DNA from: Magnetovibrio sp.
GTDB taxonomy: Bacteria > Pseudomonadota > Alphaproteobacteria > Rhodospirillales > Casp-alpha2
Direction: 5' to 3'
Assembly (NCBI GenBank): GCA_002690705.1
Contig: NZFO01000012.1
Span: 53,230 to 117,229, forward strand
DNA: 64,000 nt
Below, piece by piece: positions 53,574 through 59,563 of this stretch. The translations under genes were made by a program, and so were the position numbers. The notes under the pieces were generated by a model. That model had not been told where the DNA came from. It was given only the letters and a program-made list of their open reading frames with translations, and did not search any database. Within the stretch, counting starts at the first letter, position 1. The number at the start of each line of letters is the position of its first letter.

Positions 53574-53660
53574 TGGCAACTTGTTACCCAAATTGATTTT
53601 CCATCAGTATTTTTAATATCATGAGACAATTTTAAACCAAAAAAAAAGTCGCTTTTTGTT
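53574..53660 (+). repeat. 87-bp direct-repeat copy of the upstream region plus first 13 codons of the transglutaminase-fold gene (partner 58554-58640)
   Basis: Base-by-base comparison at a constant offset of 4980 bp gives 78/87 identical with no indels. The copy here has TTA->TAA in codon 5 (ATGAGACAATTTTAA). Confidence 0.85.
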
Positions 53661-53718
53661 AGACTTGCGAAAACGCCAAAATCACAGAGATGTTTGCAGA
53701 GCCTTTAGACAGAAATTC

Positions 53719-54498
53719 TCAGATGTCGCCTAACTCTCGTTCAAGCTGAAGTCGCTCATAGAAATATCGGTTATCGTCCCAGCTTTCGTTAGCTGGTGGC
53801 AATTTATCGTCCATCAGGGTTTCTTTTATGCGTAACAGGGTGTCAGAAACCCAGTCAGAGTTCCCAATGTAAGGGATGAGGGTTGTCTTGAACTCCATAA
53901 AGCCAACGTCCTCATAGCCTTGATGGTCAGAATAGAAGTCGTTATCGCCCTTGATACCGTTCACATAGAGAAAATATCCCAAATCAGAGACGGGAAATTC
54001 TCTCTTACGGAATAGCCATTGGTAGACTTCCATCTGTCGCTTGTATCCAGAACCCCAACCGCTCTCGATATCTGGGTCACCTTGTTTCGAGGTCGACTTG
54101 TAATCAACGATATAGAGTTCTTTGGAGTTGATATCTTCCCATACGTCATCGACAGCCCCAAACACCTCAAGGTTGGTTGCCTCGTCTAAATAACGGATAC
54201 CTTTGAAGTTGTTTCTCCAATCCTCAATTTCGGGATGTTGATATGGGATAACCTCAAGATTGAATTTCTCAAAGATTGGGTGTTCTGAGGATTGCTTCTC
54301 TCGGTAGCCATCAAACTCATTCTTGAGGAGATGGTCAGTAGCCACAGCAAGGGTAAGAGGAACCATTGATGGGGGTTTGAGACCGAACTTTCTCTGAAGG
54401 ACAAAGGTCCTTGGGCAGCGAAGGAACTGGTCTATCCCTGAACGGGATATGGGAAACGGGTCATCCCTATTTTTATCGAATTTATTATATCTCGCCAT
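53719..54498 (-). CDS. Cas4/RecB-like PD-(D/E)XK nuclease (no C-terminal Cys cluster)
   Basis: 259 aa with N-terminal SGIDQFLRCPRTF, motif II GAVDDV, motif III LYIVDYKS (D-x-K), and the QxxxY motif (RQMEVYQWL). Confidence 0.78.
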   Translation of the reverse strand: MARYNKFDKNRDDPFPISRSGIDQFLRCPRTFVLQRKFGLKPPSMVPLTLAVATDHLLKNEFDGYREKQSSEHPIFEKFNLEVIPYQHPEIEDWRNNFKGIRYLDEATNLEVFGAVDDVWEDINSKELYIVDYKSTSKQGDPDIESGWGSGYKRQMEVYQWLFRKREFPVSDLGYFLYVNGIKGDNDFYSDHQGYEDVGFMEFKTTLIPYIGNSDWVSDTLLRIKETLMDDKLPPANESWDDNRYFYERLQLERELGDI

Positions 54499-54515
54499 TC
54501 GTCAAATCCCATCTC

Positions 54516-54674
54516 CTATTGGAACTTATCCTTACAGCCGTACAAACATTGATTAGAATTCTCCGCACAGGTATCTGGTTTAATATTTGTTCCCACCGCA
54601 CAAGTCATATAAAGCTCTGCACAACCCTTCTTACATTTTTTATAATTGGCAGCACTTTTCTGCTTAGCAGGCTG
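54516..54674 (-). other. 52-codon Cys/Lys-rich reading frame continuing in frame after the TAA of the pentapeptide-repeat gene
   Basis: Hand translation: ...SGCKKGEKTS-TAA(54675-54677)-QPAKQKSAANYKKCKKGCAELYMTCAVGTNIKPDTCAENSNQCLYGCKDKFQ-TAG(54516-54518). It has six Cys. The same Cys/Lys-rich style (ENSGCKKG) already starts before the stop. Confidence 0.45.
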
Positions 54675-54968
54675 TTAGCTTGTTTTCTCACCCTTCTTGC
54701 AACCAGAGTTTTCCTCGCCCCATGGCATTTTTGTTTTACAGAGGATAGCTCCATCCAGTTTAGCATCCTTCAAGTTGGCCGTTGAAAGGTCCACTCCACC
54801 TAAGTCCGCCCCAATCAACTTGGCTTCACTCAAATCACGATTCTCACATTTATTTAGCGCCTTAAACTTTTTCAAATGAATTTCATTAAACGTCCACGCG
54901 GGAGCAGAAATACCCATCGCCAAGACAAATAGAATGTTAATTACGAGTAGTTTCTTGGAATTTGCCAT
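54675..54968 (-). CDS. secreted pentapeptide-repeat protein
   Basis: 97 aa with a signal peptide (KKLLVINILFVLAMGISAPA) and pentapeptide units (CENRDLSEAKLIGADLGGVDLSTANLKDAKLDGAIL). Confidence 0.75.
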   Translation of the reverse strand: MANSKKLLVINILFVLAMGISAPAWTFNEIHLKKFKALNKCENRDLSEAKLIGADLGGVDLSTANLKDAKLDGAILCKTKMPWGEENSGCKKGEKTS

Positions 54969-55074
54969 TTGTCAAACCACCAAAGTTGAAATTGCAGGTC
55001 TGATTGCCTCAGCATATGGGTATCAAGGTAACCGCACTCCATGTTATAAGACTTACGGTGATAAATAGGAGAAG

Positions 55075-55308
55075 ATGATGCAACTAACACCTGAACAAAC
55101 TGAGGAATTCGAGCATAAAATGCGTCAGTTATCTGATTTTGCTGAAACTTTGGGTCTGAGTTTAACAATTAACAGCTTACAGAAAACCAAAATACAGAGA
55201 AAAGAAACCTCTCCGGAAGAAGCTAAAATTTCAGGAGTTCGCAATCTCGACAGCAATGTGGCGATCGATAGTATTTGTGACTGCCAAATTACATACCATC
55301 CAAATTAG
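55075..55308 (+). CDS. hypothetical small protein
   Basis: 77-aa ORF with GGAG 3-6 nt upstream of tandem ATGs. No recognisable domain. Confidence 0.4.
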   Translation: MMQLTPEQTEEFEHKMRQLSDFAETLGLSLTINSLQKTKIQRKETSPEEAKISGVRNLDSNVAIDSICDCQITYHPN

Positions 55309-55331
55309 TGATTTAAATTATGCTGAGTAGC

Positions 55332-58132: not shown

Positions 58133-58283
58133 CTTTGCTTTTCCGCAACTTGTCGATATATTGGCGAAATTACGCAAGAAAAAGGGAGAAATTTGCGTTT
58201 ATTGTTGAGAAATTCCCGACAATCTTTTGACAATCTTTTTTTGGTGTTTTCAAGAGTATCGTAAGTCATTGATTTTATTAGTT
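58133..58283 (+). repeat. copy D of the recurring intergenic module (tandem 11-mers GACAATCTTTT x2 at 58218-58239; TTGATTTTATT at 58269-58279)
   Basis: Read directly. It lies immediately after the WYL gene stop, as does copy A. Confidence 0.7.
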
Positions 58284-58310
58284 GGGGCCGTAGCTCAGTT
58301 GGGAGAGCGC
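58284..58310 (+). pseudogene. tRNA-Ala-like 5' half (acceptor 5' strand + complete D-arm), no anticodon or T arm
   Basis: GGGGCCG-TA-GCTC-AGTTGGGA-GAGC-GC equals the canonical bacterial tRNA-Ala 5' 27 nt. Downstream (TACAATGGCATAAGATAGCTCTCC...) has no anticodon stem, no GGTTCGA T-loop and no acceptor 3' strand. Confidence 0.75.
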
Positions 58311-58385
58311 TACAATGGCATAAGATAGCTCTCCAGCCCTTCATTTGCGTTCAGCCTAATTTAATCAATTAATAGAGTTCTTTAC

Positions 58386-58416
58386 AGTCGCAGAAATCTG
58401 CGACTTCCTTTTTTTA
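58386..58416 (+). terminator. rho-independent terminator
   Basis: The AGTCGCAG-AAAT-CTGCGACT hairpin (58386-58405) is followed by TCCTTTTTTT. Confidence 0.8.
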
Positions 58417-58417
58417 T

Positions 58418-58439
58418 GGACAAGTTTTGGACAAGTTCT
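58418..58439 (+). repeat. tandem 11-mers GGACAAGTTTT / GGACAAGTTCT
   Basis: Read directly. They are related to the GACAATCTTTT pair 200 nt upstream. Confidence 0.8.
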
Positions 58440-58600
58440 GTTTTTATGGTATCTTATCGGTATGGCAAAATGCCGTCCCCTTCTCGATACCTATGAAGCA
58501 GTTGTTGAAAGCAGAGTTTGGTTTCACAAGCAACGGAACAATGGTAAGACCTCTGGCAACTTGTCGCCAAAATTGATTTTCCATCAGTATTTCTAATATC

Positions 58601-59563
58601 ATGAGACAATTTTTAACCAAAAGAAAAGTCGCTTTATTTGCAATTGGTGTAATTGCTATGAGCCTCCATTTTAAGTGGTCATCTTTTGTTAATGTTGTCG
58701 ATTACCTTTTTATGAACGGCCCTTATCTCAGCCGAACGCTTATTTATTCAGCAGAAGTTTTTGGACCCGCGAGCCGAGAACTTGCCGAAATTATTTATAA
58801 AAACCAGTACGAGGATAGGCACTGGTATAGGGTCAACTTGAGGAAAGCTAACGCCGCACTTAGGTCAAAAACAGGAATAGAGGCAAAAGTTATCAAAAAC
58901 TTTCAAATATTCATAAAAGCTTATTTAAAAATAAGAGACTCCTATCAAGGGGCCGACGCAATAACCGAGGATGTGGCAGTCAAAAAAGTAGTCGCTTTAG
59001 TTAATAAGTTCTATCAAAAGCACAAAAGAGCGAGTGTACCGCATGATCCTCAGACCTTTTTGAATTGGCCATTCCATGGTGAGAACCATTTAATTAAAGT
59101 TGCAGCTACCACAACCGCATGCGGCATAACCGCTGAGGCAACGTTAACATTACTGCGTGATCTCGGATTTCAGACTAGATTACTTGGCGTTGCTAATTCG
59201 GCGGAAAAGATTGTCTTCAATCACGTTTTGCTCGAGTACTATTCCAATCAACACAAGAAATGGATCATGCTTGACCCAATGGTGGGCGACATAGCAGGGA
59301 ACTCTGAGGCTTCACTGAGCGCGATTGAGATGATCCAATCTGTGCAAGCTCGTCAGAAGCTAAATGAAAAATGGAGTCAAAACGGGAATAGCCCGCTTGG
59401 CAAGGTTAACTTCAACCCGGTCTATAAATCTGAATCGATTATATTTTTTTCCCGCGATTTAGGGCCATTCAAAGAAACTTTTTATTACGCTAATAGTGAG
59501 CGGATAAGAGAAAGGGTAAAAGAACGAGTGTCCCAGATGCGCTTTCGACCAGAATGGCTATGA
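58601..59563 (+). CDS. transglutaminase-fold (Cys-His-Asp) protein with N-terminal membrane anchor
   Basis: 320 aa with an N-terminal TM (VALFAIGVIAMSL) and a core pattern TTACGITAEATLTLLRDLGFQTRLLGV...NHVLLEYY...KWIMLDP, equivalent to C...H...D of transglutaminase-like cysteine peptidases. Confidence 0.65.
   Translation: MRQFLTKRKVALFAIGVIAMSLHFKWSSFVNVVDYLFMNGPYLSRTLIYSAEVFGPASRELAEIIYKNQYEDRHWYRVNLRKANAALRSKTGIEAKVIKNFQIFIKAYLKIRDSYQGADAITEDVAVKKVVALVNKFYQKHKRASVPHDPQTFLNWPFHGENHLIKVAATTTACGITAEATLTLLRDLGFQTRLLGVANSAEKIVFNHVLLEYYSNQHKKWIMLDPMVGDIAGNSEASLSAIEMIQSVQARQKLNEKWSQNGNSPLGKVNFNPVYKSESIIFFSRDLGPFKETFYYANSERIRERVKERVSQMRFRPEWL

Follow-up and report, generated by a model that had tools for sequence, protein, structure and literature searches.

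A short direct repeat in a low-GC mosaic island at a tRNA-Ala hotspot of a Magnetovibrio-like bacterium, and the possible origin of its truncated copy

In Campbell-type integration, circular DNA enters by a single crossover and the insert comes to lie between two direct copies of the homologous segment. A perfect run of 23 nt is marginal for a RecA-type crossover, judged by the minimal efficient length in E. coli. Target-site duplications are typically 2-15 bp in length and are found around an element with terminal inverted repeats and a transposase. Islands of Prochlorococcus grow by repeated integration and decay beside tRNA genes, and they contain tycheposons together with partial tRNAs and remnants that are degenerate (bioRxiv 10.1101/2020.12.28.424599). 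Islands of the GIsul2 type are located at the 3' end of guaA and possess multiple att sites with a common core, GAGTGGGA, described for GIsul2 as the core recombination motif (PMC9376610).

Here we compare these systems with a locus from a marine Magnetovibrio-like alphaproteobacterium, lying in a stretch of 64,000 nt (the window). The source genome is a metagenome-assembled genome (MAG) of 21 contigs, in which contig C4 opens with a 99.5% copy of window positions 62577-63832. Like the Prochlorococcus islands, the locus belongs to a marine bacterium, is variable and low in GC, sits at a conserved tRNA hotspot and contains a partial tRNA copy, degenerate gene remnants and strain-level tandem-repeat junctions (L007, L008). 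However, it has no integrase in the 14 kb studied or on C4, the portion of the tRNA that it carries is the 5' one (nt 1-38), the restored gene is absent from the assembly, and a good deal of the added DNA is found upstream of the tRNA. As in GIsul2, the J modules of the window carry GAGTGGGA inside a copy of the last guaA codons, but the 87-nt repeat discussed here lacks this core and the att-like sites begin at 59964, outside the bracketed block. The locus also resembles a Campbell integration, in that same-orientation repeats surround 4.9 kb and one copy is joined to an intact gene while the other is a truncated stub. Unlike in Campbell integration, the homology amounts to just 87 nt at 90%, with a longest perfect run of 23 nt, neither the empty site nor a circle has been observed, and the bracketed DNA includes the tRNA-Ala remnant of the locus.

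The 87-nt repeat and its setting

The features of the locus are as follows (window positions, strand, description).

50997-52010, minus: pyruvate-kinase (PK) barrel-only gene (PF00224, 3e-62), in a left segment absent from the sister genome G001
52483-53355, plus: TTL-like ATP-grasp gene (PF03133, 1e-6)
53574-53660, plus: left repeat copy, apparently a dead 5' stub of a transglutaminase-fold gene (47 nt upstream and 13 codons, nonsense at codon 5; 78/87 to the right copy)
53661-54534, minus: PD-(D/E)XK (Cas4-like) module, CDS 53719-54498 (PF12705, 8e-10), compact and found in many contexts
54245-54417, minus: D2a, duplicated part of the intact PD-(D/E)XK gene (84% to 57265-57437)
54812-54953, minus: D3a, part of the intact pentapeptide-repeat gene at 54675-54968 (77% to 55391-55532)
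55330-55379, plus: D8a, stub matching the left portion of the guaA-end, att-like J module (74% to 59973-60022)
55391-55532, minus: D3b, pentapeptide-gene stub
57265-57437, minus: D2b, PD-(D/E)XK stub (codons ~28-85) fused to the truncated WYL gene
57431-58132, plus: WYL/WCX regulator gene lacking ~94 N-terminal codons and containing D1a (PF13280, PF25583; 85% aa to the full 325-aa G001 gene)
57808-58128, plus: D1a, within the truncated WYL gene, matching D1b
58284-58321, plus: tRNA-Ala(GGC) nt 1-38, broken off where the anticodon loop ends (38/38 match to the intact tRNA of G001)
58322-58553, plus: segment X, from the tRNA break to the right repeat (terminator-like hairpin at 58386-58405, then a T-run)
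58554-58640, plus: right repeat copy, comprising native sequence upstream of the intact transglutaminase-fold gene plus its codons 1-13 (same X-repeat-gene arrangement in L006-L011)
58601-59563, plus: intact transglutaminase-fold gene, 320 aa (conserved Cys174, His208 and Asp225)
59651-59972, plus: D1b, stub of the WYL C-terminal part, following the transglutaminase-fold gene (80% to D1a, 57823-58128)
59964-60150, plus: J1 module, which closes with a copy of the final guaA codons (IEWE*) and has the GAGTGGGA core at 60137

Positions 53574-53660 and 58554-58640 are identical at 78 of 87 nt, ungapped and at an offset of 4980 nt, which reproduces the direct repeat around 4.9 kb reported in the initial annotation; in the core of the pair (53574-53655 on the left side) 76 of 82 nt are identical, also ungapped. 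The remainder of that description holds as well, since the right copy is native upstream sequence (47 nt) plus codons 1-13 of the transglutaminase-fold gene, with its ATG at 58601, and the left copy begins 219 nt after the stop of the TTL-like gene (53355) and contains a TTA to TAA change, reading ATG AGA CAA TTT TAA. A gapped local alignment lengthens the match to ~94 nt only (~12 nt beyond the core), and thus both boundaries of the repeat are sharp. Using BLAST over the whole 3.03-Mb assembly, 2 copies only were found (E 7e-29), which disposes of an earlier concern that the repeat might belong to a dispersed family, and ARAGORN and Rfam returned nothing relevant by way of a tRNA or known RNA within it. 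Both copies are spanned, arranged as in the window, by the metagenome assemblies L005 and L018 at 99.8-99.9% identity, and since they are arranged alike in independent assemblies the repeat is no assembly artefact. Overall, the chance that we are dealing with a fortuitous match or a product of MAG assembly is practically nil, considering an E of ~1e-28 and the independent assemblies L005, L018, L019 and L020 (99.8-99.9%).

One possibility is that the left copy has been kept for a function, as a promoter or operator duplicated from the transglutaminase-fold gene and now driving or controlling transcription toward the 3' end of the PD-(D/E)XK gene. It has diverged less than the other stubs of the island, an imperfect palindrome (TGGCAAC...GCCA) stands at the start of the repeat and the two copies share a weak sigma-70-like match. 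We nevertheless regard this as very improbable, as the promoter-like match is at background level with its -10 element overlapping the ATG, the left copy has a degraded palindrome (TTACC for TCGCC), the duplication extends to coding sequence, which carries a stop codon, and the sequence is found nowhere else in its own assembly or in 95 other genomes of the family. The left copy is thus most probably not a regulatory element.

A target-site duplication is excluded, as the repeat is 82-87 nt in length, there are no inverted repeats at the ends of the bracketed block and no transposase or integrase ORF was found within 53.6-58.6 kb. An att repeat of a tRNA island is also excluded, the repeat having no similarity to tRNA and contigs C9 and C4 having no match to the PF00589 integrase. 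The same is true of an att site of the GIsul2 type at guaA, as seen in the J modules, because GAGTGGGA is absent at both copies; within 48-64 kb it occurs at 60137, 61196 and 63969 only, in J modules that lie farther to the right and separate single-gene cassettes from one another. The guaA gene itself is not in the assembly.

Modules, seams and further stubs in the island

GC content falls from 0.50 to 0.36-0.42 over 50.4-62 kb. Homology of G001, a genome of the same genus, to the window ends at ~50891 and restarts at ~53675, and relative to the FYDLN-tRNA-Ala backbone the novelty on the left is the PK/TTL/stub piece (~50.9-53.66 kb). The TTL-like gene belongs to just 3 protein clusters among 5.8 billion sequences and was not found in 60 relatives. 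Immediately to the right of the left copy lies the PD-(D/E)XK module, for which there are 4246 homologues and whose homology in L059, L048, L049 and G001 is confined to the gene plus 30-60 nt. The L059 sequence (90% nt) matches from 54500 down to 53661 and diverges precisely where the left repeat copy ends, which places a module seam between 53660 and 53661, at the right end of that copy. The divergent tail found upstream of PD-(D/E)XK in L021 had no match anywhere when searched. At the other end of the block, the tRNA-Ala piece at 58284-58321 is the single fragment of this tRNA on contig C9, its 3' half is absent from the assembly, and a search of 95 further genomes of the family gave no match to segment X.

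The 87-nt repeat, referred to as D4, is one of five pairs of an intact gene and a nearby stub in this low-GC mosaic island, the four further local pairs being D2 (84% identity), D1 (80%), D3 (77%) and D8 (74%). D4 is the outermost and least diverged of the nested pairs (7% divergence versus 16-22%), and the pairs differ in age (D4 versus D1, p=0.008; D4 versus D3, p=0.003). The longest perfect run is 23 nt in D4 and 44 nt in D1. A single tandem duplication behind all of the pairs was considered and rejected, as both their offsets (4980, 3020, 579 and 1843) and their ages differ. A WYL C-terminal part followed by a J module is also present on C4, at ~22.7 kb.

Metagenome contigs and related genomes

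The arrangement is stable in the population, with at least 12 contigs from independent metagenome assemblies being collinear with the window and none of these containing a deletion or circle junction. In JGI metagenome contigs, exact-pattern scans run without a positive control gave 0 matches each for the junction expected of a deletion (TTL-repeat-transglutaminase) and for the reciprocal circle. Recombinants of D1, with its 44-nt perfect run, do occur in the population, whereas the available contigs contain none of D4, with its run of 23 nt. Specifically, L008 assembles as a 1,843-bp circle or tandem unit that comprises the WYL C-terminal part, the tRNA 5' part, X and the transglutaminase-fold gene, and L007, from a k=119 assembly, has the same type of junction; both junctions are clean D1b/D1a hybrids.

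These units, together with the interleaved order D4a<D1a<D4b<D1b and the position of the tRNA 5' part exactly between the units, could be read as two integrase-less sibling elements in tandem at the tRNA-Ala, with E2 beginning at the left repeat and ending at nt 38 of the tRNA and E3 consisting of X, the right repeat, the transglutaminase-fold gene and the WYL C-terminal stub, such that the D4 pair are homologous left arms and the D1 pair right arms. However, this is improbable, since the L007 and L008 hybrids are explained by unequal crossover at the 44-nt identical run of D1, and the integrase island known for the genus at this tRNA-Ala (G004) duplicates tRNA nt 28-76 and not the 5' part. 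Moreover, the WYL C-terminal part with its J module recurs on C4, and D1b may accordingly be part of an element of the guaA type, neither X nor a tRNA stub is found to the left of the left repeat, and X was not detected in the 95 other genomes. Likewise improbable is the specific proposal that the interleaving reflects two integrase-less mini-elements that would use tRNA-Ala(GGC) nt 1-38 (5', not the usual 3') as their attachment site, where the 1,843-bp unit, assembled as a circle in one metagenome, would be a single-gene cassette mobile in trans and the left repeat what is left of the corresponding arm of a sibling element that is older and has decayed.

The island sits at an aroA-FYDLN-tRNA-Ala(GGC) hotspot. 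In G004, G005 and L045, FYDLN is followed by tRNA-Ala(GGC) within ~150 nt, and judged from this synteny the FYDLN-tRNA-Ala pair is genus backbone. The order in G001 is FYDLN, PD-(D/E)XK, WYL and an intact tRNA-Ala, without the TTL-like or transglutaminase-fold gene there. Between the left copy and the tRNA break its homology to the window covers ~53675-54509 and 57437-58321 only, and its right arm consists of WYL, 152 nt and the tRNA. As PD-(D/E)XK and WYL are 84-85% identical in amino acids to those of G001, versus 59% for aroA, this apparently resident block may in turn be a mobile module that was exchanged recently and carries the tRNA 5' part. Neither G000 nor G001 has tRNA remnants on the left side of the block.

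The initial annotation took, as the simplest reading, the TTL-like and transglutaminase-fold genes to have once been adjacent, and when such adjacency was looked up in related genomes the two were unlinked in every homologue context found, which, as far as the data go, is the outcome that the annotation had named as contradicting it. There was no TTL-like gene near the transglutaminase homologues in the locus DNA of G001/L003/L036, L012, L037 and L038 or in the whole genome of G367, and no TTL-like homologue at all in the whole genomes of G001 and G367. Conversely, around the sole other TTL-like gene for which a context is available (68% aa, L013-L017), neither a homologue nor a remnant of the transglutaminase-fold gene turned up, even at E<50. 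Nor was any linkage found in 60 relatives, 400 Alphaproteobacteria, a GTDB-wide pattern scan or searches of 5.8 billion proteins with context look-ups. These homologues are distant (29-68% aa) and therefore poorly informative about what happened recently in this lineage. With neither adjacency nor co-occurrence seen elsewhere, the comparisons do not point to a conserved TTL-like/transglutaminase-fold gene pair, and none of them showed a former neighbourhood of the two genes.

Origin of the left copy

In the initial annotation, the block was envisaged as having been inserted or duplicated between the two genes. What stands of this is that a stub of a transglutaminase-fold gene start follows the TTL-like gene and that the outermost, least diverged pair fits a late event around a block already assembled; what is not supported is the adjacency, given that no linkage exists in any context found and that the core of the block is present in G001 with neither gene there. 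A Campbell-type version, in which a circular 4.9-kb DNA with an 87-nt 5' fragment of the transglutaminase-fold gene would have entered by a single crossover beside adjacent TTL-like and transglutaminase-fold genes, duplicating the fragment, deserves consideration but is in our view unlikely. It would account for same-orientation direct repeats that exactly bracket the block with sharp ends, for D4 as the last event, and for a junction between tRNA nt 1-38 and X that can be read as the attP-like junction of a circular element, G001 having the same WYL-152 nt-tRNA right arm. It does not sit well with the missing linkage, with the lack of an empty-site or circle junction in either the metagenome contigs (scans without a positive control) or the collinear contigs, with a tRNA-Ala remnant inside the block at its genus-conserved position after FYDLN, with the block being a patchwork of modules and stubs in its own right, or with a longest perfect run of 23 nt.

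We favour instead, with about as much belief as doubt, a reading in which the left copy is a non-functional relic, the 87 nt that begin a copy of a transglutaminase-fold gene (promoter-proximal sequence and 13 codons), made by module shuffling in a mosaic island. It would have been stranded at a seam between a PK/TTL module to its left and a PD-(D/E)XK/pentapeptide module to its right, both being part of the low-GC island that would have accumulated around aroA-FYDLN-tRNA-Ala(GGC). Recombinational shuffling, by import, ectopic or illegitimate joining and deletion, would have produced this stub, which may have come with the PK/TTL segment from a donor or been copied through an ectopic join with the resident gene start, and the same kind of shuffling could have left the other four pairs of stub and intact gene. 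The repeat, the seams, the synteny, the other stubs and the stability in the population are observed, whereas in what order and by what mechanism the events took place is inferred. Importantly, the tRNA ends after nt 38, between the repeat copies, and thus the TTL-like and transglutaminase-fold genes flank a backbone landmark on opposite sides. By its synteny this remnant is most likely in its ancestral place, and for this reason the two genes probably did not stand side by side on this chromosome.

Every scenario requires at least three events. Several points run against the preferred reading: D4 is both outermost and youngest, as would be expected had the entire block been inserted late; the available homologues of the two genes are distant; the apparently resident block may be an exchanged module; and the left side in G001 has no tRNA remnant, so that the reading does not account for the entry of DNA upstream of the tRNA.

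The left copy is ordinary island wear, stubs and short direct repeats being the expected recombination debris of hypervariable islands. The repeat alone carries little weight and is useful as a marker. Taken with the mapped seams, the truncated tRNA-Ala and the four other stubs, it shows an island built of compact single-gene modules that have been swapped and partly overwritten, and it removes the main structural argument for a functional partnership of the TTL-like and transglutaminase-fold genes at this locus.

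The 87-nt repeat pair and its island setting

Placed 4980 nt apart throughout, the two copies of the 87-nt direct repeat align ungapped and share 78 of 87 bases, or 76 of 82 in the core. All that the initial annotation states as fact about the repeat is borne out, namely its positions, identity, offset, TTA to TAA change and gene-start content. By BLAST against the whole 3.03-Mb, 21-contig assembly each copy matched only its partner (E 7e-29), and with just two copies present both a chance match and a dispersed repeat family, the latter named in the initial annotation as an outcome that would refute its reading, are excluded as its origin. 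Gapped local alignment of wider flanks gained only ~12 weakly similar bases, thus both ends are sharp.

53574-53660, left copy: starts 219 nt past the stop codon of the TTL-like gene and reads ATG AGA CAA TTT TAA
58554-58640, right copy: 47 nt of upstream sequence and codons 1-13 of a 320-aa transglutaminase-fold ORF

The family of the transglutaminase-fold protein has invariant Cys174, His208 and Asp225. The repeat contains no tRNA similarity and no GAGTGGGA, the GIsul2-type att core (PMC9376610); the ends of the block it brackets carry neither inverted repeats nor recombinase genes, and its sole promoter-like match scores no better than background and overlaps the start codon ATG.

A run of core genes (cmk, aroA) and the FYDLN-acid gene reaches to 50918, after which GC content falls from ~0.50 to 0.36-0.42 and stays low until ~62 kb. 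This low-GC stretch contains the following genes.

Barrel-only pyruvate-kinase-like gene
TTL-like ATP-grasp gene
Cas4-like PD-(D/E)XK gene
Pentapeptide-repeat gene
Small ORF
ndh-type oxidoreductase gene
WYL/WCX regulator gene, 5'-truncated
Transglutaminase-fold gene
WYL C-terminal fragment
60189-61097: T5orf172 protein gene, PADLOC PDC-S57 (candidate defence family), E 1e-68

The PDC-S57 match gives the right part of the island a defence-island character.

The tRNA-Ala landmark and the question of former adjacency

The initial annotation read the TTL-like and transglutaminase-fold genes as former neighbours, separated by insertion or duplication of the 4.9-kb block. The sister species (G001, a Magnetovibrio sp. 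MAG and the nearest named genome) has, in this order, FYDLN, 220 nt, PD-(D/E)XK (minus strand), 724 nt, full-length WYL (plus strand), 152 nt and an intact tRNA-Ala(GGC), and over the island stretch it aligns to the window only at ~53675-54509 (77.5%) and 57437-58321 (78.8%). The block read as inserted therefore contains a segment (PD-(D/E)XK, WYL and tRNA-Ala) that the sister species has at the same place. In the window nt 1-38 of the tRNA remain (58284-58321), matching the intact gene at 38 of 38 positions and breaking off where the anticodon loop ends, which corrects an earlier match of 27 nt broken at the anticodon stem; none of the 21 contigs contains the 3' half. What is new on the left relative to the sister species is 50892-53674, comprising the pyruvate-kinase-like gene, the TTL-like gene and, after a further 219 nt, the stub. 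The TTL-like gene thus lies left of the tRNA-Ala landmark and the transglutaminase-fold gene right of it, and if the remnant is in situ the two were probably not neighbours on this chromosome.

The PD-(D/E)XK (53719-54498) and WYL (57431-58132) products are 84-85% identical in amino acids between the two species (sister locus L033), whereas in neighbouring core genes identity is much lower (aroA 59%, cmk 69%); between WYL and the tRNA the spacer is still alignable at ~79%. These identities suggest a recent exchange of the module between lineages.

In G004, G005 and the L045 organism, a tRNA-Ala(GGC) comes within ~150 nt after the FYDLN gene. In G004 it is followed by a tyrosine integrase, with tRNA nt 28-76 repeated 17.4 kb further on, indicating that this tRNA is an integration hotspot and, in the genus, an active integration site. 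The island concerned (L031, G004:C136:6278-23757) comprises the tRNA, the 474-aa integrase, cargo and the direct repeat.

The TTL-like protein falls in only three clusters among 5.8 billion proteins and the transglutaminase-fold protein in six; searches of 60 relatives and of 400 other Alphaproteobacteria each turned up the latter family in a single genome. Within 10 kb of a 68% TTL homologue (L013-L017) there was no transglutaminase gene or remnant, even at E<50. Locus searches found no TTL-like gene near the transglutaminase homologues of L012 (45%), G001/L036 (~28%), L037 and L038, and whole-genome searches found none in G367, which carries a transglutaminase homologue, or anywhere in G001. 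As far as data exist the two genes are thus unlinked in related genomes, which the initial annotation had counted against adjacency; however, these homologues are too distant to bear on recent events. A canonical circularly permuted ATP-grasp/Alpha-E/transglutaminase-like operon lies in the island continuation (L034, contig C4:8051-11225 of the source assembly); this association is known, and its genes are unrelated in sequence to those of the window.

Other stubs, module seams and population variants

Self-comparison shows the 87-nt pair (D4) to be one of five stub/intact pairs, the other four being as follows.

D1: 57823-58128 (WYL C-terminus) and 59666-59972; 80%, offset 1843
D2: 54245-54417 (within the intact PD-(D/E)XK gene) and 57265-57437; 84%, offset 3020
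D3: 54812-54953 (within the pentapeptide gene) and 55391-55532; 77%, offset 579
D8: 55330-55379 and 59973-60022 (start of a J module, ending in a guaA 3'-end copy); 74%

A single duplication as the source of all pairs is rejected, since offsets (4980, 3020, 579 and 1843) and divergences differ. D4, D2 and D3 are nested (left copies in that order, right copies in reverse) with divergence increasing inward, and D4 and D1 are interleaved. The divergence of D4 (7.3%) is significantly lower than that of D1 (p=0.008) and D3 (p=0.003).

Wherever an independent contig (TARA, JGI, ENA, Logan) encodes an identical form of the TTL-like or the transglutaminase-fold protein, it is collinear with the window (96.8-100%); two, L005 and L018, span both repeat copies, and none joins the two genes. 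Exact-pattern scans of JGI metagenome contigs, run without a positive control and on a set that may lack near-identical records, gave 0 matches to the predicted empty-site junction or its reciprocal circle junction. We recast the initial reading as a Campbell-type event in which a circular 4.9-kb DNA integrated through the 87-nt homology. That D4 is both the youngest pair and the outermost favours this account, but sister-species synteny, the block's composite make-up and the missing empty site speak against it, and we consider it doubtful.

Recombinants were seen for D1 only, whose longest perfect run is 44 nt against 23 nt in D4. Contig L008 (ERZ829061 NODE_68988, 1890 bp) has a 47-nt terminal overlap and a WYL fragment that is a clean hybrid of the right and left D1 copies, followed by 58129-58396 at 100%; L007 (ERZ27286360 k119_83874, a k=119 assembly) has a junction of the same kind. 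In both, the assembly presents a 1,843-bp unit (57823-59665: WYL C-terminus, tRNA 5' part, 58322-58553 and the transglutaminase-fold gene) in circular or tandem form, explained by either unequal crossover at the 44-nt run or an excised circle. Tandem sibling elements at tRNA-Ala would account for the D4/D1 interleaving and for L008, but conflict with the 3'-type att of G004, and simple unequal crossover explains both junctions; we regard this origin as improbable.

In L059 the PD-(D/E)XK gene (95% amino acid, 90% nucleotide identity) has pentapeptide-gene remnants upstream, and homology runs from 54500 down to 53661 and then diverges, making the right end of the left copy (53660) an exact module seam. 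The 58 nt between 53660 and the PD-(D/E)XK stop belong to the PD-(D/E)XK module. The module is compact and promiscuous (4246 homologues), with nucleotide homology limited to the gene and 30-60 nt; its contexts include EamA genes, RNase T, AsnC, and positions directly after guaA (L049) or after tRNA-Ala (L045). The L049 homologue, from another organism (ERZ28774279 k127_19605950, 7964-10648; 87% amino acid identity), is a 215-aa form also found in L021, a strain variant that diverges from the window at the PD-(D/E)XK start. A Logan contig (L023, ERR318620) ends at 53662, 2 nt past the left copy, which could be an assembly-graph fork at the seam or a mere coverage drop.

Origin of the left copy

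Next to the repeat locus stands a series of GIsul2-like att scars. Within 48-64 kb the GAGTGGGA core occurs only at 60137, 61196 and 63969, in each case inside a J module, and these modules also carry a copy of guaA's final codons (IEWE*); the guaA C-terminal domain was not found in the assembly.

J modules (guaA-end copy, IEWE*, with GAGTGGGA core)
Window: 59964-60150, 61132-61210, 63717-63990
Contig C4: 1141-1370, 2628-2798, 4417-4636, 5520-5720, 22698-22889

Contig C4:1-1256 is a 99.5% copy of window 62577-63832 (an MFS gene with the left J3 half); past 1256 both J half and cargo differ from those of the window, an assembly fork inside a J module that reflects either strain heterogeneity or true duplication.

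As the best reading, and with roughly even confidence, we take the left copy for a dead stub located at a seam between modules. It may have been made by the recombinational shuffling that would also have left the other stubs, through import, ectopic or illegitimate joins, and deletions. Prochlorococcus islands likewise contain partial tRNAs and degenerate remnants (bioRxiv 10.1101/2020.12.28.424599). The repeat pair is a real observation whose initial interpretation is only partly supported, and we view it as the kind of debris that is ordinary in a flexible island associated with a tRNA.
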